DNA of 64,000 nucleotides from assembly GCA_018716885.1 (NCBI GenBank), contig DVJI01000012.1, positions 78,050 through 142,049 of the forward strand. The letters are read 5' to 3'. How positions within the stretch are numbered: the first letter of the stretch is position 1; every line of letters starts with the position of its first letter. Origin of the DNA: Candidatus Enterousia intestinigallinarum (GTDB lineage: Bacteria > Pseudomonadota > Alphaproteobacteria > Rs-D84). Shown here piece after piece: positions 4,462 through 52,052 of the stretch. The notes beneath the pieces are model-generated. The model was not told the origin of the DNA. It saw only the letters and a program-made list of their open reading frames with translations, and made no database searches. The position numbers were made by a program, and so were the translations under genes.

Positions 4462-4601
4462 AACTAAAACTCCCTTTATTGTTTGTTTAACAGGCAAGGG
4501 TAAATGTAGGACTGAAAATAATAAAAAGCAACAGGAAAAGGCCAACTGTGTTTTATGCTGGACTTTTTATCGTAACGGGTATAGAATCCAGCCATAAAAA
4601 C

Positions 4602-4675
4602 GCGGGCGTGGTATAATGGTAGCACGTCAGCTTCCCAAGCTGAAGACGAGGGTTCGATTCCCTTCGCCCGCACCA
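4602..4675 (+). tRNA. tRNA-Gly (anticodon CCC)
   Basis: Cloverleaf gcgggcg...cgcccgcacca with anticodon loop ttcccaa and an encoded CCA end. Confidence 0.85.
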
Positions 4676-4704
4676 AAAAATTAAACCGACCTTGTGTCGG
4701 TTTG

Positions 4705-4959
4705 TTATTTTGATTTTTGCGATAATTCGTATTCCAACTTTTCTAACTTTGATTGAATCGATCGCATTAGTTTTTTATTTGTATTACTGCGTGCCATTGT
4801 TTTACGCAACAGTTCTGCCTGGCGCGCAATCGCAAACGCGCCACACACTTTGGCGCGCGATTCCACCGACGACACCAATCCCAACAACTGCGTCCAATCC
4901 ATTTCCTGGGTGCTTTCGGGGCTGCGAAAATTCTTTGACGCGTTTCTTTTTTCGTTCAT
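4705..4959 (-). CDS. Small basic coiled-coil protein, hypothetical
   Basis: 84-aa ORF that fits neatly between the tRNA-Gly gene and the LysM-domain gene. No homology recognised. Confidence 0.3.
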   Translation of the reverse strand: MNEKRNASKNFRSPESTQEMDWTQLLGLVSSVESRAKVCGAFAIARQAELLRKTMARSNTNKKLMRSIQSKLEKLEYELSQKSK

Positions 4960-4962
4960 TTT

Positions 4963-6123
4963 TTATTTTGCACTGGCAGATGTAGGAATTTGTAATTGTT
5001 GTTGTGGAAATATTAAATCCGGATTTGCAATGTTGTTGCGTTCTGCGATTATACTGAACAAAACACCGCGACGCAGAAAATTGCGTGCAATAATCCACAA
5101 GCAATCGCCACGACGTACTGTATAGTATGTATCATCATCACCAGTCATTTGTGGCATTGTGAAATGATGTTTAACCTCTGCAATGGCGCGACCATCTCCG
5201 TCGTGCAGGCGCACCGTCAAATCATATTCACGGCCTGGTTCCAACTGGCCAACGTCTGCCCCCAATCCAAAATGCTTATGATCAGAAACACGCGCGAATC
5301 CCAAATACTTGTCATCCAAAGACAATGACACACGCAACCGTGGCAAAGAATCACCGGTTACAACAATGCGTCCAGTATCCAGATAATCAATCTTTGATAC
5401 AACCAAATCGCCATCAACCAACATTGTCGGTGCCTGCAGTAAAGTGCTGCCGTCATTGGTCATCAACAGCGATACGGAATTGGTATATCCACGTGGAGAA
5501 ATATAAACAAAAACATTTTCGTCAGATTTAACATCACCTTCGACGCCTATCAGTGAAATAGTATAGTTGCCTGCATCAAACGGTGTTGTCGGCGAATATA
5601 CAAATTCGCCATTTTTATCGGTACGCGCGGTCGCAACGATATCGCCGTTTATCACAATGGACACACTTTTGTTCGGCATCCAGCGTCCCGCAACGACAAC
5701 CGTTCCGGCGGGTTCTATTCTGACGATATCGAACATAGGCACCGTGTATTCAACAGTGGCATCGGCAACCTGTATTGTCGGTTCCGCAACAGGCGGCACA
5801 ACAACAACTGTCGGATTGGGACGATGAAAAAACGCAACCCAAACTGCAATCAGAACAACAATGACCGCACATAAAATCGGGAACCAGTATGACGCCAGTC
5901 CACTACGGCGCTGCAGCTGAACAATTTCGGATGTTGCGACGGATTGTGTATCATTTTTAGGATTCGGACGCGCAAATATATTTAATGTCTTCAAAAAGCG
6001 TCGCGCAAAGTTACGGCGATTTTCCATCCAGTCGTTTTGCTGTGCAATAGCGCTATCAATCAAATCATCTGTTGAACGCTTGGTTTTTCCCATATTTGTG
6101 TTGGCTTTGTTGTTTTTAGACAT
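4963..6123 (-). CDS. Membrane-anchored protein with a C-terminal LysM peptidoglycan-binding domain
   Basis: One transmembrane helix (YWFPILCAVIVVLIAVWVAFF) and a C-terminal LysM-like block (YYTVRRGDCLWIIARNF...PDLIFPQQQLQIP). Confidence 0.6.
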   Translation of the reverse strand: MSKNNKANTNMGKTKRSTDDLIDSAIAQQNDWMENRRNFARRFLKTLNIFARPNPKNDTQSVATSEIVQLQRRSGLASYWFPILCAVIVVLIAVWVAFFHRPNPTVVVVPPVAEPTIQVADATVEYTVPMFDIVRIEPAGTVVVAGRWMPNKSVSIVINGDIVATARTDKNGEFVYSPTTPFDAGNYTISLIGVEGDVKSDENVFVYISPRGYTNSVSLLMTNDGSTLLQAPTMLVDGDLVVSKIDYLDTGRIVVTGDSLPRLRVSLSLDDKYLGFARVSDHKHFGLGADVGQLEPGREYDLTVRLHDGDGRAIAEVKHHFTMPQMTGDDDTYYTVRRGDCLWIIARNFLRRGVLFSIIAERNNIANPDLIFPQQQLQIPTSASAK

Positions 6124-10362: not shown

Positions 10363-10390
10363 AAAAAACGGGGCATTTGCCCCGTTTTTG
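10363..10390. terminator. Bidirectional intrinsic terminator (aaaaacggggcatttgccccgttttt)
   Basis: Same acggggca..tgccccgt hairpin core as the terminators at 7313 and 14755. Confidence 0.65.
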
Positions 10391-13300
10391 TTATTCCATA
10401 CTGTCATCATATACAGAATAGGTTGTTCCACCAGAGTTCAACTTCAACGCACCTATACCACTGGCCCCCATATTTCCATAGAACGTTGTTCCATTGATAC
10501 TTACGTTCAGGGACGGGGTAGTTTTCCGTTCACTGCGCAGATAAATCTTTTCACCGTTGACGTTCAACACACGTCCACAGTCACCGACTTCATCAGCACC
10601 GGCACCGGAACCTATCGTGGTCAACCCGTCATCACACGCATTGCGAACACCTGCGCTGCCCTGGGATACGGTGGATGCCGCCGCCCAATATCCGGCACCA
10701 ACATCAGAACACGTTGTGTTATTTGCCGTTGCAATATATGAACCACCACCACAAGAAATCTTACAATCACTTGCCGTATCGTGGTTTGCGGCCGCGGTGC
10801 CACTGATTGTATAGTTGGTCAAACAGTTGCTGTACGAACTGATACTGCCCTGGGCGACACTGTGTGCACCGACGTACCAGTTACCAGCCGGTGTAGTACA
10901 ACTTGTTGCGTTTGCCGCGGTAATTCTGGTACCCGCCGCACAACTGATTTTACAATCCGTTGATGCATCGTGGTCCGTACGCGCTGTTGTATTTGGCGTT
11001 GAATAATTCGTCAGGCACGCTTTGACCGTTGTGGTCGGCGTTGTTGAGCCCGCCGTCACACTGTGTGACGCAGTGTACCAGCTGCCCGTTGGCGTTGTAC
11101 ACGCTGCATCTGCTGTTACCACACGGGTACCCGCCGCACAAGTAATACTGCAATCAGATTTTGCATCGTGATTCGACGCTGCGGTACCACTGGTTGAATA
11201 CCCCGACGGACACGCCGTACACGCCGACATTCCAGTTGATGCGGCATAAGTATTAGCAGCACACACCGAACAAGACGTTGCGGTACTGTCATCAGTCCCC
11301 TGGAACGTGCCAACCGCGCACGCCGGACAGGTTATGCCGCTGACATACCGTCCTGCTTTTGCAGTAACAGATTTCACGGTTTGCTGACAATCTTCACTAT
11401 TCGTTGAACACCCTGATTTAATTGTGCCATCTGCACTGCCTGTGCTGTTAGAATATGCCACGTATGAACAGGCCGGCAAAGTACAGGTGTTACACGTGCT
11501 GTCCGAACAGCCAGTTGGTGTTGCACAAGATATTTGTTCACCGGTCCACGCACGTGACTTGCTGTTACTGTAACAAGATGTAATAGCAGCAGCACCGGCA
11601 TCTGAATTCGGATAACCAGACGGGCAGGTGTTGCGTGTACTGGTTGAACCATAGCTCACGCTATGTGCCGCACGATAGTACCCGTCACCAACCGCCGTAC
11701 ACGCCGCCTCTGCGGTTGCAACGTACGTACCGCCCGCACAACTGGTTTTGCAGCCGCTTTCGGATGATGCCGCCGCACCGCTGCGATAGTTCGCCGGACA
11801 CTGGGTTCGTGTACTGGTCGAACCATAGTTCACAGTATGTGCCGCACGATAGTATCCGGTACCGACGGATGTACACGCCGCATTAGCCGTGGCAACATAT
11901 GTCCCACCAGAACAGGATATCTGACAAGATGACGCCGCGGTTTTTCCAGCTGTGGTATTGGCGGTATACCCAGACGGACAATTATTCTGCACACCACTGC
12001 TGCAATATGTCGCGCCAGTACACTGCGACTGACCAGTACAGTTGTTGCCACTGGTGTTGCAGCCCGTTGTATAATAACCACTGCCGACGGTGCTACACGC
12101 CGATGCGCCATCCGCACTGTACTTAGTACGTCCAGTACACGCACTGCACGAAGATGTTGATCCGTAATAAACCGTATGCGCCGCTTTATATGTACCCGCC
12201 TCACAGGTCGATACAGATGTCGCATTTGCCGTTGCAACGTATTTACCGCCGGAAACACTCATATAGCATTTAGATATACCACCTTCATTACCATCAGCAG
12301 AATTTGGATATGCCGACGGGCAGGCACTGCACGACGTTCCATTGTCATAGTACCCAGCATCTGCAGTTACCGCTGCCGGTGTTTTTGTACAATTAGACGG
12401 TGTGCACGTCGTATCGGTTGCACTTTGATAATCACGGTATGAACAAGTCCCCGGGGTACAACTGTTCCACGATGTAACACTGGCGCAGTTGGCCGGAACA
12501 CTGCCGTTTACCTGGTTACCGGTCTTCGTTTTTGTTACATAGCAGTACGCGTCGCTGATATTGCCGCCGTCGGATTTCGGATAACCAGATGGGCAGGCAC
12601 TGCAGCTTGTTCCGTTCACATAGAAGTTTTCCTTTGCTGTGACGGCCTTTGGTGTTTTGGTACAATTAGACGGCGTACAAGTACCATCAGTTGCACCATT
12701 ATAATCCTTATACTGACAGGTTCCTGGGGTACAACTGTTCCACGATGTAACGCTGGCGCAGTTGGTCGGAACACTGCCGTTCACCTGGGATCCGGTTTTT
12801 GTCCCATACTTATAACAATATGAACTGCTGATATTACCACCATCTGAATATGGGTACGAAGAACCACATTTTGCGGCACTACCACCACTCAAGTAATAGT
12901 TGTCATCAGCAGACGTACACGTTTGTGGTTTCGTACAATTAGTCGGTGTACAATCACTTACAATCGTACCACTGTATTGCTTGGTATACGTACAAGTCCC
13001 TGGGGTACACGTTCCCAACGTACGCGCCGCACACCCAGTTTGCATAGACGGCGTTGTTTGTGAACCGGTCTTTGTAAACGAACCAACGCAAGAATTCTGA
13101 TTGGCTGCACCAGCACCGTCACGATACCCGGATGGGCACTGTGCCTGGGCGCTGTTACTGGACTTGTAAAATCCATCTGAAACCGTTTTACACGATGTTT
13201 GGCCAACTGCATTTTGATATTGCAAAGAACCACTGCACGCACTGCGGCCGGACGTTCCACCGGGACAGGCATATCCCGCTTGGCACTGGGTACAGGTTGT

Positions 13301-14197
13301 ACCATTTACATACGCACCGGCCTTGGCAGATAATGCTGACGATACCGTCGTTGCACCCCACGCGGTCGCACTGGTCGCGTTTTGTTTTAACGTACCGGCG
13401 CTGCAATACGTACTGGCCGATGTTGCTGCGCGCGTTTGATTACATTGGGTATACGATGTCCATCCGGTGCCACTATTACGCGTCCACCCGGACGTCTGCG
13501 CCGGACAACTGTTCTGAACACCACTGCTGCAATATGTCGCACCCGTGCATTGTGATTGACCGGTACAGTTATTACCACTGCTGTTACACCCGGTTGTATA
13601 ATATCCACTGCTGACCGTTTTACACGACGATGCCCCGGCCGCACTGTACTTTGTACGTCCTGTGCATGCACTGCACGATGCGGATGCCTGGGTGCCACTG
13701 CCGGGCTTGTACGTACCGGCCGAACACGCCGACCATACTGCATATACCGTATCATTGGCGGTAAATGTCATAGATGTCGAACCAGACGTCGCAGTACTGG
13801 ATGTTGACCATCCCTTGAATACATATCCAGCACGATAAAACGTCGTTGTCGCACCAGATTGCAATGAACACGAAGCCCCCTTGTTACAAGTCTTGTTGGC
13901 CGGCTTTGTTCCAGACCCACCGTTCAAATTGTATGTAATCGTAACAGTCTGTTTAACCGGCGCAGATGTTCCCCCAGCACACGTATAATAAGAACCATAA
14001 TCCGAACATGGACGACATGCGTTCCCAGCCCTTGGGGTGCCATTATATACCGTGCTTGATGAAGATGTCGCCATATAATACCCAGATGCACAACTGGTAT
14101 ATTTCTTGTAACTGGGACAAGAATAGCCAGCAGCCAACGCATTGCCGGCAAAAATCAACATAAACAAACACGCTAAATAACGCAGAATTTTTGACAT
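10391..14197 (-). CDS. Very large (1268 aa) secreted Cys/Ser/Thr/Gly-rich repeat protein with many CxxC motifs (surface protein, uncharacterised)
   Basis: N-terminal signal peptide MSKILRYLACLFMLIFAGNALA. Several long internal repeat units, e.g. ...YGSTSSCSACTGRTKYSA...GYYTTGCNSSGNNCTGQSQCTGATYCSSGVQN... occurs twice, and CTPGTC...NGSVP.NCASVTSWNSCTPGTC recurs. No hydrophobic core. Confidence 0.8.
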   Translation of the reverse strand: MSKILRYLACLFMLIFAGNALAAGYSCPSYKKYTSCASGYYMATSSSSTVYNGTPRAGNACRPCSDYGSYYTCAGGTSAPVKQTVTITYNLNGGSGTKPANKTCNKGASCSLQSGATTTFYRAGYVFKGWSTSSTATSGSTSMTFTANDTVYAVWSACSAGTYKPGSGTQASASCSACTGRTKYSAAGASSCKTVSSGYYTTGCNSSGNNCTGQSQCTGATYCSSGVQNSCPAQTSGWTRNSGTGWTSYTQCNQTRAATSASTYCSAGTLKQNATSATAWGATTVSSALSAKAGAYVNGTTCTQCQAGYACPGGTSGRSACSGSLQYQNAVGQTSCKTVSDGFYKSSNSAQAQCPSGYRDGAGAANQNSCVGSFTKTGSQTTPSMQTGCAARTLGTCTPGTCTYTKQYSGTIVSDCTPTNCTKPQTCTSADDNYYLSGGSAAKCGSSYPYSDGGNISSSYCYKYGTKTGSQVNGSVPTNCASVTSWNSCTPGTCQYKDYNGATDGTCTPSNCTKTPKAVTAKENFYVNGTSCSACPSGYPKSDGGNISDAYCYVTKTKTGNQVNGSVPANCASVTSWNSCTPGTCSYRDYQSATDTTCTPSNCTKTPAAVTADAGYYDNGTSCSACPSAYPNSADGNEGGISKCYMSVSGGKYVATANATSVSTCEAGTYKAAHTVYYGSTSSCSACTGRTKYSADGASACSTVGSGYYTTGCNTSGNNCTGQSQCTGATYCSSGVQNNCPSGYTANTTAGKTAASSCQISCSGGTYVATANAACTSVGTGYYRAAHTVNYGSTSTRTQCPANYRSGAAASSESGCKTSCAGGTYVATAEAACTAVGDGYYRAAHSVSYGSTSTRNTCPSGYPNSDAGAAAITSCYSNSKSRAWTGEQISCATPTGCSDSTCNTCTLPACSYVAYSNSTGSADGTIKSGCSTNSEDCQQTVKSVTAKAGRYVSGITCPACAVGTFQGTDDSTATSCSVCAANTYAASTGMSACTACPSGYSTSGTAASNHDAKSDCSITCAAGTRVVTADAACTTPTGSWYTASHSVTAGSTTPTTTVKACLTNYSTPNTTARTDHDASTDCKISCAAGTRITAANATSCTTPAGNWYVGAHSVAQGSISSYSNCLTNYTISGTAAANHDTASDCKISCGGGSYIATANNTTCSDVGAGYWAAASTVSQGSAGVRNACDDGLTTIGSGAGADEVGDCGRVLNVNGEKIYLRSERKTTPSLNVSINGTTFYGNMGASGIGALKLNSGGTTYSVYDDSME

Positions 14198-14691: not shown

Positions 14692-14754
14692 AGTTACCGG
14701 GTATTCGTTGCTCGTATCTCGTTATTCGTAACTAGTAACTAGTAACGAGCAACA

Positions 14755-40458: not shown

Positions 40459-40486
40459 AAAAATCCCGCAACCCGCGGGATTTTTT
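40459..40486. terminator. Intrinsic terminator (aaaatcccgcaacccgcgggatttttt)
   Basis: Hairpin plus T-run after rpsI. Confidence 0.65.
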
Positions 40487-40493
40487 ATTATTA

Positions 40494-40637
40494 GTTACTG
40501 TAATAACAATTAGACGTATATGTATATGACCCGGTGCTGTCGCTGCCGGTGGTGCCAGACGGCAAATAACACGACGTGATTGCCGTTGCGCCCGCAGTGG
40601 ATGAACCGTTACTGGGACAGCGGCTGCAACCCCACAT
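40494..40637 (-). pseudogene. Short ORF (47 aa) that is a second, shorter copy of the C-terminal third of the Cys-rich secreted protein at 48868..49347
   Basis: The translation MWGCSRCPSNGSSTAGATAITSCYLPSGTTGSDSTGSYTYTSNCYYSN matches ...CCPNSGSSVAGSTVITSCYLPSGTTGTDTSGTYTYTADCYYSN. It has no signal peptide and is not in the ORF track (under 60 aa). Confidence 0.4.
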
Positions 40638-40703
40638 AAATAAATACAAGAAAATAAAAAGACGCGCGGTCGTGCAAACTTATTATTGCGTTTATAAAAA
40701 AAC

Positions 40704-40713
40704 TGTGTATAAT
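40704..40713 (+). promoter_or_regulatory. Extended -10 promoter element (tgtgtataat) for tig, with a ttgcgt -35 hexamer 16 nt upstream
   Basis: TGnTATAAT match about 35 nt upstream of the tig ATG. Confidence 0.4.
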
Positions 40714-48459: not shown

Positions 48460-48837
48460 GTGATAGTAGGTATTGGAATTGATTTGGTCGAATGCGGCAG
48501 ATTTCTGGATTGGTCCGCGTTCAAAAAACAACGCATATTTACAAAAAAAGAACTGGAATATGCCGACGCCGACAATGCAAATGCCGAAAAACATCTGGCA
48601 AATTTCTGGGCCGCACGCGAAGCGTGTCTAAAGGCACTGGGGATTGGATTTGGCGACGACATTGGTTTTTCCGATGTATCCGTAACACATAATGACGCGG
48701 GACGTCCGGAACTGATGCTGGCCGGCGGTGCCAAGGCAGCGTTAAAGGAACTGGCTGGTGGTGATGCAGTTGTCCACCTGTCAATAACCGACCAGGACGA
48801 TTATTCCGCCGCAATCGTTGTAATTGAAAAATTATAA
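48460..48837 (+). CDS. acpS: Holo-[acyl-carrier-protein] synthase
   Basis: GTG start at VIVGIGIDLVE and the 4'-phosphopantetheinyl transferase motif ...AAREACLKALG. Confidence 0.75.
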   Translation: MIVGIGIDLVECGRFLDWSAFKKQRIFTKKELEYADADNANAEKHLANFWAAREACLKALGIGFGDDIGFSDVSVTHNDAGRPELMLAGGAKAALKELAGGDAVVHLSITDQDDYSAAIVVIEKL

Positions 48838-48867
48838 AAACAAAACCGCCATATCGGCGGCTTTGTT

Positions 48868-49347
48868 TTAATTGCTGTAATAGCAATCTGCAGTGTACGT
48901 ATATGTTCCACTTGTGTCAGTTCCGGTTGTTCCAGACGGCAAATAACACGACGTAATCACAGTTGAACCGGCCACAGACGAACCACTGTTTGGACAGCAC
49001 GTACAACCAGATGAACCATTTATGGTTCTTCCATAATATCCCGCAGCACATCGGTATTGAATTGATGAAGTACACTTTGTTGATGTTGAACAATATCTAT
49101 ATGTACGACGTTCATAACCCGTTGCGTACGCCGTCCACGCTGACGGCGAACAGTTGGATGCTGTACACGTCGTACCACCACCAGACATAACACAGATTCC
49201 ACCGGGGCAATCCGTGTCCCTCGAGCACGCCAGTCCATCGGAAGGGCCGCCATCACAAATTCCACGTATACCAGCAACAGCAAACGTCGTACTCGATATA
49301 AATATGGGTATCGCAATAATTATAGTGGGTAAAATAAAATATTTCAT
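48868..49347 (-). CDS. Small secreted Cys-rich protein (159 aa), lineage-specific family
   Basis: Signal peptide MKYFILPTIIIAIPIFISSTTFA, 20 Cys, ribosome-binding site (AGGAG). Its C-terminal third recurs at 40494..40637. Confidence 0.6.
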   Translation of the reverse strand: MKYFILPTIIIAIPIFISSTTFAVAGIRGICDGGPSDGLACSRDTDCPGGICVMSGGGTTCTASNCSPSAWTAYATGYERRTYRYCSTSTKCTSSIQYRCAAGYYGRTINGSSGCTCCPNSGSSVAGSTVITSCYLPSGTTGTDTSGTYTYTADCYYSN

Positions 49348-49480
49348 AATTCAATCTCCTGATTTTTGTTGAAACAAAAAACCACCAGTTTTACTTGGTG
49401 GTCAGGAGGTTGACTACAATCATAGGAATTGTGCCGCGTATTTGGTATTCCGCGACCCTCCTGACCCGAAAATCAGGAGT
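49348..49480 (-). promoter_or_regulatory. Structured 5' leader of the 159-aa Cys-rich gene, carrying an internal intrinsic terminator and an anti-Shine-Dalgarno segment (possible attenuator or riboregulator)
   Basis: Read 5' to 3' on the minus strand: CUCCUGAUUUUCG, then hairpin GGUCAGGAGG...CCUCCUGACC, then terminator ACCACCAAGUAAAACUGGUGGUUUUUU, then ...AAAAUCAGGAG (the ribosome-binding site), then AUG. Confidence 0.3.
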
Positions 49481-49631
49481 TTGTTTTTCGTCGTAATACT
49501 AAAACGGGCGCATTTTTGCGCGCCACAGGTTTATATTCCGACGCCTATGCACGGGTAGTCACACCCCATTGACGGAACACCCGTCAACATTTATATGTTA
49601 TCGCATAGTATTTGAATATTCAAGGCAAAAT

Positions 49632-49661: not shown

Positions 49662-52052
49662 TTACAGCAACGGCGGGAAACAATCGCCACCGGCTTCTGG
49701 GCAACAGTTGAATCCCATATCACCCATATCGGTATAAACTTCACCAGTGCAGCACCCGTTCACGTCCGGCGCCGTACCGTCTGGACAGGTCGGCAAATCT
49801 TCAACCGTATCCGACCATACCACGGACGTTACAGATTGCGGAACATATCCGTCATCGGACGCCACCGATGCTTGGGATGAATTTAATCCGGATTGATTTT
49901 CCACCGGCGCGCTGACAATCGACGGACCGACTGTATCAACGGCCTGCATATTATTTTGACGCAATGTTTCGGTATCGTAATTTTCATCTGCGACAAACAT
50001 ATTTTCATTTTGTGAAACGTTATATGCCGGCTTGCTGGCCAAAATTTCTTCTTCAGTTGGAATTTCCGGCTTTGGTTCAGTGCTTGAAACTGGTGTGGTT
50101 ACGGCGACAGATTCAACAACCACATCAGCTGCTGGCACTTGTTCAGCAACCGTTTCTGGTGTATCAACAGGTTCCGGTTCTGGTTCTGTCACTGGTTCTG
50201 GTTCCGGAATTTCCACGGGAGCCGGTTCTTCCACAACAGGTTCCGGTTCGGGTTCTTCCACAGGAACGGGCACTGTTATTTGCGTTTCAACAGTTTCAAC
50301 TGCGGCCGGCGTTTCCAATTCCGGTATAAACGGACTGTCCGCATCAGTTAAATCATCTGCCTGTGCGGTTTCCGTTGTGGTTGGCACTGTTGCGGTTAAA
50401 TCAGGTGCATTTTCACTGGTGTTCTTTTGATACAACCACAATGTAAATATAGACAACCCAATCAACAACACCAACATTATATAATAAACTAATGTAGGTT
50501 TACGCGGTGCTGGATTACTTGGCGCCACATTACCAGTAATCGGCGACACAGGACGCGGCGCGGACGCAGCAGCCGAAACAGTTGACGCCGGCGGGACAGG
50601 GCGCGCCCCTGCATCTACCGCTGGCGACGCCGTGGCGGGCGCCTGGGGTTCTGGATTTTGTGCCGCTGGCAGCGGTTCAGATTCTGCATCTGGTACAACT
50701 GGCGAAATATTCGGCACCAGTTCAGAATCTAATTGTTGGGCAGAATTATCCGCGGCCGTCGGCATATTCACGGACGTAATTGTATCCAAAACCGGTGTTG
50801 TTGCTTTTTCATCTGATACACGCGGTGCTTCTTCACCAGTTACAGGTCTGACATTTATTGGCGCGTTGTCCGCACGCTTATCAGACGGTGGTGTGAACGA
50901 CAACGGTTTGTCATCAATAATATTTTCATACACTTCCGGATTGTCGGTAACCGGACTTGTTTCATCAGACACCGGACTGGAAACACCAAACTCAATCGGC
51001 TTAAACGCGATTTCTTCGTCCAATATTTCCGGGTCTTTATCAAACAGTGGTTTTACCGCATCATTATTTGTTTCATCGGCCATTATTTCCGCCTTTGGTT
51101 CTTCATTTATATTTTCTGTAAATTCCACGCGTTCTTCTTCATCAACAGGCATACGTGCAACCACATCATCATCAGACGCCACGGCCGCAACACTGGTATG
51201 TGCAGGCGCACCAACCGCAGTTGATTCAACAGGCGCAGAATCACCGGCCACGGATTCTTTGTCATCCGTATCAAAATCCACATCCGTATCATAAGACACA
51301 TTGTATGTTGTTGTAACCGATGGAATAGCATCGTGTGCCTGCGGGGCATCGACATCACGCACAACAGCAACCGGTGCACGCGCCAAAATTTCACGCGCAA
51401 TTTGTGCATCTTCGTCCGCAACAATCAGGCGCCGCTGTGCATTATCCAGACGTTTTTTTGCACGACGCAGTTTTTCATTTGTTGCATCAATCTGCGCATC
51501 CGTACGCAATATTTTAGACGCCGACTTTTTTGTCGGTTCACGTCCGACCTGTTTTTTCTGTTGCGACAACTTGGCCCGCAACTGGCGTAATTTCGTTTGC
51601 AGTTCGGCAATGCTTTCACGTGTTCTGACGATTGTTTCGCGTGCAGTTTCGGCATTTGCATCTGCAACGGCCAAACGTTCCGTCGCTGCGCGCCGGACGG
51701 AATCTTCACGAAAAGCAGTCAGTGCCGTCAGCGCCGCCGTCAAATCATCGCCATTTTCATATGCGTTGATTAAATTGTCGTATTCAGCCAAGCCGCTGTA
51801 TTCAATATCTAACTTTTGATATTTATTATTTTTCTTTGGGCGCACAGTTTCCAAATCAACGTTATAATCATTGGCCAAAATGTCATCCCATTTGCGGTCA
51901 CCAACCGGATTTATCACCAAAAGAGCATTTGGCTTGCGATCGTCCAGCGTGCTGTCCAAAACAAACACCAACTTATCATCGGCATCATAATACGCACGCA
52001 ACACGTTTCCGGCGATATTGTATTCCCTGAACGTCAAAACAGATTTATCCAT
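49662..52052 (-). CDS. Single-transmembrane protein (796 aa): cytoplasmic coiled-coil N-domain, one transmembrane helix, periplasmic acidic Pro/Glu-rich repeats and a Cys-rich C-terminal knot
   Basis: Ribosome-binding site (GAGAGGGAAAA) then ATG. Heptad-like region LRQLRAKLSQQKK...LRRAKKRLDNAQRRL. Transmembrane helix LVYYIMLVLLIGLSIFTLWLY. Repeat run EPEPEPVVEEPAPVEIPEPEPVTEPEPEPV. C-terminus CPDGTAPDVNGCCTGEVYTDMGDMGFNCCPEAGGDCF. Confidence 0.6.
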   Translation of the reverse strand: MDKSVLTFREYNIAGNVLRAYYDADDKLVFVLDSTLDDRKPNALLVINPVGDRKWDDILANDYNVDLETVRPKKNNKYQKLDIEYSGLAEYDNLINAYENGDDLTAALTALTAFREDSVRRAATERLAVADANAETARETIVRTRESIAELQTKLRQLRAKLSQQKKQVGREPTKKSASKILRTDAQIDATNEKLRRAKKRLDNAQRRLIVADEDAQIAREILARAPVAVVRDVDAPQAHDAIPSVTTTYNVSYDTDVDFDTDDKESVAGDSAPVESTAVGAPAHTSVAAVASDDDVVARMPVDEEERVEFTENINEEPKAEIMADETNNDAVKPLFDKDPEILDEEIAFKPIEFGVSSPVSDETSPVTDNPEVYENIIDDKPLSFTPPSDKRADNAPINVRPVTGEEAPRVSDEKATTPVLDTITSVNMPTAADNSAQQLDSELVPNISPVVPDAESEPLPAAQNPEPQAPATASPAVDAGARPVPPASTVSAAASAPRPVSPITGNVAPSNPAPRKPTLVYYIMLVLLIGLSIFTLWLYQKNTSENAPDLTATVPTTTETAQADDLTDADSPFIPELETPAAVETVETQITVPVPVEEPEPEPVVEEPAPVEIPEPEPVTEPEPEPVDTPETVAEQVPAADVVVESVAVTTPVSSTEPKPEIPTEEEILASKPAYNVSQNENMFVADENYDTETLRQNNMQAVDTVGPSIVSAPVENQSGLNSSQASVASDDGYVPQSVTSVVWSDTVEDLPTCPDGTAPDVNGCCTGEVYTDMGDMGFNCCPEAGGDCFPPLL

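Follow-up and report, generated by a model that had tools for sequence, protein, structure and literature searches.

A probable remnant of a Cys-rich protein gene between rpsI and tig in Candidatus Enterousia intestinigallinarum, and the structured leader RNA found upstream of its intact relatives

Truncated pseudogene copies of surface-protein genes are known to serve gene conversion, as in the pilS loci of Neisseria, the "functional pseudogenes" msp2/p44 of Anaplasma and the vls cassettes of Borrelia. The fragment described here, a short ORF between rpsI and tig, resembles these systems in lacking a promoter, in being copied without its 5' part from the gene of a variable exported protein, in bearing signs of exchange with full-length copies and in belonging to a family with conserved 5' and 3' ends around a variable middle. 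Unlike them, the window (the whole 64-kb stretch of DNA analysed) does not contain several promoter-less cassettes with a variable region, but one fragment made of the conserved 3' module only; moreover, there is no defined expression site and the fragment is absent in one strain. The protein family itself shows the pattern C-x2-G-Y-Y ... C-x2-C-P-x-x-G ... C, which recalls the PF07699 Ephrin_rec_like/GCC2_GCC3 and Giardia VSP-type CXXC repeats, and a 1268-aa protein in the neighbourhood reaches the PF07699 cut-off and aligns weakly to the family profile. In contrast to those repeats, no Pfam or NCBIfam model fits the small proteins, and their confident AF2 domain is without a PDB neighbour. 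Finally, the leader upstream of the intact genes is similar to terminator-type riboswitches and attenuators in having a long conserved 5' UTR, a covarying multi-helix domain, an intrinsic terminator and a sequesterable SD, while differing from the known ones in that it has no Rfam match, precedes genes for secreted Cys-rich proteins and not for enzymes or transporters, and shows no covariation in the proposed switching helices, which are invariant.

Enterousia belongs to the uncultured order Rs-D84 of the Alphaproteobacteria and is without the TCA cycle, respiration and most biosynthesis, the genomes of Candidatus Enterousia being smaller than 1 Mb and about 90% coding (PMC12306168). Literature searches on Enterousia, and on Rs-D84 together with riboswitch, returned nothing on the family or on the leader RNA. 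The new element is a large unnamed secreted Cys-rich family behind an undescribed structured leader RNA.

The following features of the window concern the intact gene and the fragment.

48868..49347, minus strand: gene for a 159-aa secreted Cys-rich protein (by prediction) with 14 Cys (P0001 = HIS71043.1, 100% match, Ca. Enterousia intestinigallinarum)
48871..49008, minus strand: C-terminal module of this gene, codons 114-159, GC.CP..GSS.AG.T.ITSCYLPSGT..D..G.YTYT..CYYSN ((near-)invariant columns among 65 members)
48837..48869, minus strand: terminator after the 159-aa gene (scan; 15-pair stem and T-run)
40491..40637, minus strand: short ORF of 48 codons plus stop, with 4 Cys and without signal peptide or leader (P0081 = HIS71033.1)
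40482..40631, minus strand: segment that corresponds by homology to the 3'-terminal part of a 201-aa paralogue, with codons 156-201, the stop codon and some 10 nt after it (DNA alignments)
40492..40684, no strand assigned: strain-variable segment of 193 nt, comprising the fragment and about 55 nt of filler (alignment with 10 other assemblies)
40459..40486, plus strand: rpsI terminator, native to the site and kept in the strain with an empty site (terminator scan, strain comparison)
40686..40713, plus strand: tig promoter-like site TTGCGT-N16-TATAAT, adjoining the variable segment (read by eye; conserved in all strains)

According to the ORF list, the 159-codon ORF and the short ORF have a 46-residue C-terminus in common. 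The initial annotation had proposed that the short ORF is a second, shorter copy of the C-terminus of the 159-aa protein, and BLASTP bore this out with an ungapped alignment of 33/46 identical (72%) and 43/46 similar residues and an E value of 2e-21. The nucleotide alignment of the two loci was also ungapped, with 94/131 identical positions (72%; E 4e-16), and finished at the stop codon. The DNA word quoted as common to both loci was found as the 23-mer CCAGACGGCAAATAACACGACGT, whose only two occurrences in the window are at 40555 and 48932, whereas a tblastn search of the 64 kb revealed no third copy of the module. The similarity cannot be reduced to low-complexity Ser/Thr/Gly codons devoid of Cys spacing, the objection raised beforehand: all four Cys of the short copy are in register with Cys of the 159-aa protein (C-x2-C-P ... 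ITSCY ... CYYSN) and 27 of the 41 nucleotide differences fall at third codon positions. This bias, together with a dN of 0.16 and a saturated dS, indicates two long-diverged coding sequences. Some details of the initial annotation had to be corrected, since the 159-aa protein contains 14 and not 20 Cys, the ATG-started short ORF counts 48 and not 47 codons (reaching 40649 if TTG is taken as start), and its neighbours are the rpsI terminator and the tig promoter-like site instead of the terminators of both genes. The lack of a signal peptide in the short copy was confirmed. The consensus scan reported no plus-strand promoter at the tig site.

The closest relative of the fragment is not the 159-aa gene (72% DNA identity) but a 201-aa paralogue, to which it is 95.3-97% identical over the last 140-150 nt. 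The individual values were 143/150 to the loci L047-L052 (allele P0067), 145/150 to L006 (P0016) and 136/140 to L005 (P0010). As the genes flanking the loci with these three alleles are 97-98% identical to one another, the loci were assigned to one species. The homology begins exactly at codon G156 of the 201-aa gene and extends about 10 nt past the stop, and tblastn detected no trace of residues 1-155 near the fragment in any frame. One 262-kb MAG contig at NCBI carries all three genes, as HIS71033.1 (48 aa, IAD02_03545), HIS71043.1 (159 aa, IAD02_03600) and HIS71096.1 (a 145-aa call of the 201-aa gene, IAD02_03895); judged from the spacing of the locus tags the 201-aa paralogue lies about 70 genes away and is thus outside the window. 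The fragment in itself is probably an ordinary gene remnant, and its parent is the 201-aa paralogue. No leader RNA was found at the short ORF by nhmmer, the promoter-like match upstream of it is weak (9/12), and its start has no purine-rich motif, which is a weak test as only 18 of the 38 gene starts in the window show one. The metagenome gene callers placed no gene over the fragment in 10 assemblies and the gene-position index has no record of the exact 48-aa product, while the NCBI pipeline annotates it as HIS71033.1.

The spacer between rpsI and tig was then compared in 10 other assemblies with flanks of 94-99% identity to the window. The fragment was present in nine of them, whereas in the remaining one (L058) 13 unrelated nucleotides replace window positions 40492-40684 and the tig side is 98.5% identical; the rpsI terminator and the tig promoter-like site are intact with or without the fragment. 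All fragment alleles end with TAA and all parent alleles with TAG, which indicates that the fragment arose once. A frameshift in L056 alters the last residues; with the window counted, 9 of 10 copies have kept the frame. By strain comparison the fragment is dispensable, being absent in the one strain and frameshifted in the other. Among the strains 11 variable sites are synonymous and 3 non-synonymous. Variable sites number 14 of 141 in the fragment but 3 of 176 in the non-coding sequence that flanks it (Fisher p = 0.002), and the changes of the fragment are clustered, with several double substitutions in one codon or in adjacent codons. Furthermore, the S/A polymorphism in YTYT[S/A]N is common to the fragment and to alleles of the 201-aa gene, and the latter are block mosaics. 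The 55-nt filler, in contrast with the polymorphic fragment beside it, is 100% identical in all nine other fragment-carrying strains. This excess of clustered variation, partly common with the parent, favours gene conversion from the functional paralogues over selection in situ, and gene conversion is taken here as the probable cause on the basis of these sequence comparisons. Four synonymous differences from the parent were also considered as a sign of selection on the fragment and rejected, two of them being polymorphisms of the parent lineage. The filler itself (40632-40684) had no match in any fetched locus.

The intact 159-aa gene was examined in the same way by comparing window positions 48868-49347 with L065 3001-3480, which is the same locus (GcrA, a 794-aa protein, the gene and ACPS) in another strain; L065 and L059 are on the same 867-kb contig. 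Identity is 96.5-99.7% in the flanking genes (dS 0.01-0.08) and 99.6% in the leader, and codons 1-33 do not differ at all. Codons 34-125, however, gave a dN of 0.18 and a dS of 0.47, and codons 126-159 a dN of 0.013 and a dS of 0.42. A dS of 0.42-0.47 in the gene against 0.01-0.08 in its flanks means that the mature part was replaced by a deeply diverged allele, and the dN of 0.013 against a dS of 0.42 shows that the C-terminal module is under strong purifying selection.

Taken with the features of the site, these data led us to regard the short ORF as a partial duplicate without function, which gene conversion homogenises passively, with a probability of about 0.75. A copy of about 150 nt of the 3'-terminal part of the 201-aa paralogue, comprising its last 46 codons, the stop and some 10 nt more, would have settled in the neutral space that separates the rpsI terminator from the tig promoter, accompanied by about 55 nt of filler. 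The copied piece would have brought neither promoter nor leader RNA nor signal peptide, and it has 4 of the 6 Cys found in the smallest intact family members (91-98 aa), so that no exported and correctly disulfide-bonded protein would be expected from it and the fragment is predicted to be unexpressed. Its frame would be kept, and its variation would be mostly synonymous, owing to ongoing exchange with the full-length paralogues and not to translation. The initial annotation had offered a gene remnant or a duplicated cassette; the remnant stands, although with another parent than the 159-aa gene, and a functional donor cassette is the less likely reading. It should be said that an 11:3 synonymous bias and an intact frame in 9 of 10 copies would also be expected under purifying selection on a translated peptide, that the NCBI annotation as a protein speaks the same way, and that the missing SD is weak evidence by a test that fails for more than half of the gene starts in the window. 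The "hypothetical protein" of 48 aa HIS71033.1 is nonetheless probably the annotation of a gene relic.

A real small gene, coding for a non-exported Cys-containing peptide of 48 aa, would draw on the intact frame, the synonymous bias and the annotation, on the weak promoter-like match upstream and on the rpsI terminator hairpin, which is bidirectional. We judge it quite improbable, as every intact family member has a signal peptide and the minimal members have 6 Cys where the short ORF has 4, as the start context is without a purine-rich motif, as the ORF is missing or frameshifted in two strains, and as the pattern of diversity suits conversion better than selection in situ. The fragment might instead be a silent cassette, acting as donor or acceptor: a partial copy that has no promoter and is retained for C-terminal exchange with expressed paralogues in the manner of pilS, msp2 and vls. 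A diversity above that of the flanks, polymorphisms in common with the parent alleles, the mosaic structure of the latter and the wholesale swapping of the mature part of the 159-aa gene between strains, with leader and signal peptide unchanged, are all compatible with such a role; yet conversion can be passive, the copy is single in 64 kb and missing in one strain, and above all it holds only the 46 most conserved codons (dN 0.013) and no variable region, so that it would have almost no diversity to supply. This disfavours a donor function, which we consider unlikely. In a region rich in Ser, Thr and Gly one might suspect a match due to chance or low complexity, or else an artefact of assembly, but with E values of 2e-21 for the protein and 4e-16 for the DNA, the Cys spacing kept and the fragment at the same site in nine independent assemblies from different studies it can practically be dismissed.

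The 159-aa protein belongs to a large family. A word-seeded search yielded 66 relatives, and a full HMMER scan with the family profile returned 1,607 cluster representatives (50% identity) at E <=0.001, 889 of them at <=1e-10; most of the matched members are 160-240 aa long and the match reaches the last residue. A scan of species-representative genomes gave 40 family loci. All of them come from MAGs of gut origin, most of which are labelled Alphaproteobacteria, and a single MAG has at most five. A tblastn search of 50,697 phage records found no match. Behind the signal peptide, the members have an N-terminal part that is Cys-rich and variable, and they end in the conserved tail Y.C..GYYG....G.SGC..CP..G.S.AG.T.ITSCYLPSGT..D..G.GTYT..CYYSN, and the smallest of them (91-98 aa, 6 Cys) are reduced to the signal peptide, one C..GYY...C..CP unit and the tail. 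Pfam and NCBIfam searches with the 159-aa, 201-aa, 92-aa and 188-aa members returned nothing significant; the best sub-cut-off model matches of the small proteins were VSP (E 0.04) and Nodulin_late (E 0.075), both far below the cut-offs, and PF07699 Ephrin_rec_like at its gathering cut-off did not match the 159-aa, 201-aa and 92-aa members. The 159-aa protein starts with a Sec-type signal peptide read from the sequence (MKYFILPTIIIAIPIFISSTTFAVA followed by G), its AF2 model is confident over residues 60-159 (pLDDT 81-96), and this domain has no neighbour in the PDB. The product would be exported by Sec and then oxidised into a compact disulfide-rich domain, in which the conserved C-terminal module would form the fold core and the variable N-terminal and middle part the interaction surface; both export and a surface function are predictions. 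Just upstream, at 49662-52052 on the minus strand, a 796-aa protein with no significant Pfam match has a coiled-coil-like N-terminus, long low-complexity stretches rich in Pro, Ala, Glu and Thr, one hydrophobic segment and a Cys-rich tail (CPDGTAPDVNGCCTGEVY...CCPEAGGDCFPPLL).

A further Cys-rich protein of the window was compared with the family.

10391..14197, minus strand: 1268-aa Cys-rich repeat protein, exported by prediction (Pfam Flg_new 1.8e-7; Ephrin_rec_like 6.3e-5)

The 1268-aa protein has one Listeria-Bacteroides (Flg_new) repeat, and its Ephrin_rec_like score of 23.1 bits is exactly the gathering cut-off. Alignment of the family profile to its residues 530-628 by hhalign gave a probability of 54% and an E value of 1.3e-4. 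The idea that the Cys-rich surface proteins share modules thus received moderate support, and a repeat type common to the family and the 1268-aa protein is plausible from these alignments; the AITSCY string, on which the idea had been based, is not the part that aligns and by itself is no evidence for it. A relationship to the 1268-aa protein is also possible for the 1661/1667-aa protein encoded next to the 201-aa gene in other loci.

The intact genes are preceded by a conserved leader, which in the window is part of the following features.

49348..49595, minus strand: structured 5' leader RNA of about 240 nt (nhmmer, covariation, fold z)
49595..49623, minus strand: putative sigma-70 promoter TTGAAT-N17-TAACAT of leader and gene (read from sequence)
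49375..49403, minus strand: intrinsic-terminator-like hairpin and U-run inside the leader, 14 nt before the SD AGGAG (scan)

The upstream regions of the 159-aa and 201-aa genes are 83% identical, more than most of the coding sequence, and in the fetched loci, L005-L052 included, nhmmer hits to the leader abut the start codon in more than 40 family genes; nearly all members have it. The motif pair GGTCAGGAGGG...AACCTCCTGACCAC of the leader may serve for metagenome scanning. The upstream region of the paralogue has the same -35/-10 spacing as the putative promoter, which was not reported by the consensus scan and is proposed from its sequence as a sigma-70 promoter. The same leader also precedes a second family of secreted Cys-rich proteins of 110-124 aa (CCPTG...TCP.GW...GYYTQ.YGTC), found in L035 (3566-3898) and in L036, L037, L038, L040, L042, L044, L045 and L029; in L035 and several other loci the gene of the second family is followed by a minimal member of 91-98 aa, apparently in a two-gene operon.

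Covariation was evaluated on 27 distinct aligned copies, using the RNAalifold consensus with one added helix. RNAalifold returned a hairpin, a long-range helix pair closing a domain of about 170 nt, inner hairpins and the terminator, so that the architecture consists of hairpin P1, the helix pair P2/P3 around three inner helices and then the terminator. In the resulting structure of 52 pairs, 96.9% of the cells are paired and 28 pairs have changed on both sides. The covariation score was 0.419, against 0.05-0.09 when the partners were slid by 1-3 columns, and none of 500 shuffles reached it. The copy in the window folds with z = -6.05, and truncated transcripts fold into the consensus structure and then into the terminator hairpin, in whose stem (helix 7) compensatory changes are present. 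Neither this leader nor those of five other loci matched Rfam 15 at the gathering score or at E up to 10.

Fold predictions assigned three mutually exclusive partners to the invariant segment CCUCCUGA(CC). It is predicted to pair with the closing helix at its 5' strand, with GGUCAGGAGG, part of an inner helix (-19 kcal/mol; the terminator would then be disrupted), or with the SD region UCAGGAGAUUGA (-13.5 kcal/mol); in the MFE fold of the read-through transcript CCUCCUGA pairs with the SD. The leader therefore combines a structured 5' UTR domain with covariation, as in riboswitches, and an expression platform (terminator and/or SD sequestration) that is a prediction, and it is a candidate attenuator or riboswitch, its anatomy suggesting a default "off" state. 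The promoter would drive the leader of about 240 nt, which by default would adopt the closed multi-helix domain followed by the terminator, and some signal would have to remodel it before the ORF could be transcribed and translated; this switching mechanism is modelled on the predicted folds. Ribosome-mediated attenuation through a leader peptide, encoded by an ATG-GGN-TGY ORF, was considered and rejected. Such an ORF is of the MGC/MRC type in only 20 of 27 leaders, three others having a different ORF and four no ATG; it has no SD, the ends of the frame are variable, and its "codons" covary with partners about 170 nt away.

The leader may also mark sites of rearrangement. In assemblies of one species the 201-aa gene and its 1667-aa neighbour, identical in each case, were found behind four different upstream neighbourhoods, i.e., obg/rubrerythrin, hisS-prfA, rho-ssb and bactofilin-rpiB (L047, L048, L049 and L050, at about 4600-5000), with the junctions at or inside the leader. 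These contexts may result from recombination through the leader repeat or from assembly switching. Several family copies are retained in spite of a genome below 1 Mb, each behind a structured leader and with mature regions swapped between strains, a pattern to be expected of host-contact or partner-contact proteins under diversifying pressure. Family and leader together provide a concrete handle on these uncultured organisms, in the form of a regulon and a testable RNA. As a tentative and rather speculative view of the whole, the leader might represent a new class of ligand-sensing riboswitch or an attenuator sensing a trans factor, gating a hypervariable Cys-rich regulon of Rs-D84, while its invariant 3' portion and the C-terminal module might anchor recombination events by which variable mature regions pass from one locus or strain to another; in that case the fragment between rpsI and tig would be a by-product.

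Other small remains of family genes were noticed. In another MAG (L043 3872-4102) a family tail of 37 codons is fused to the first ~140 nt of a leader, which is an internal-deletion relic comparable to the rpsI-tig fragment and in line with reading the latter as a remnant. Within the window, a recurrent terminator hairpin, AACAAAAACGGGGCA(A/T)ATGCCCCGTTTTT, at 10364-10393 and 14731-14785 matches the terminator after the 201-aa gene, and at 14731-14750 the hairpin is preceded by GTAACTAG repeats, which resemble the last 9 nt of the 201-aa gene and are possibly an even smaller relic of it.
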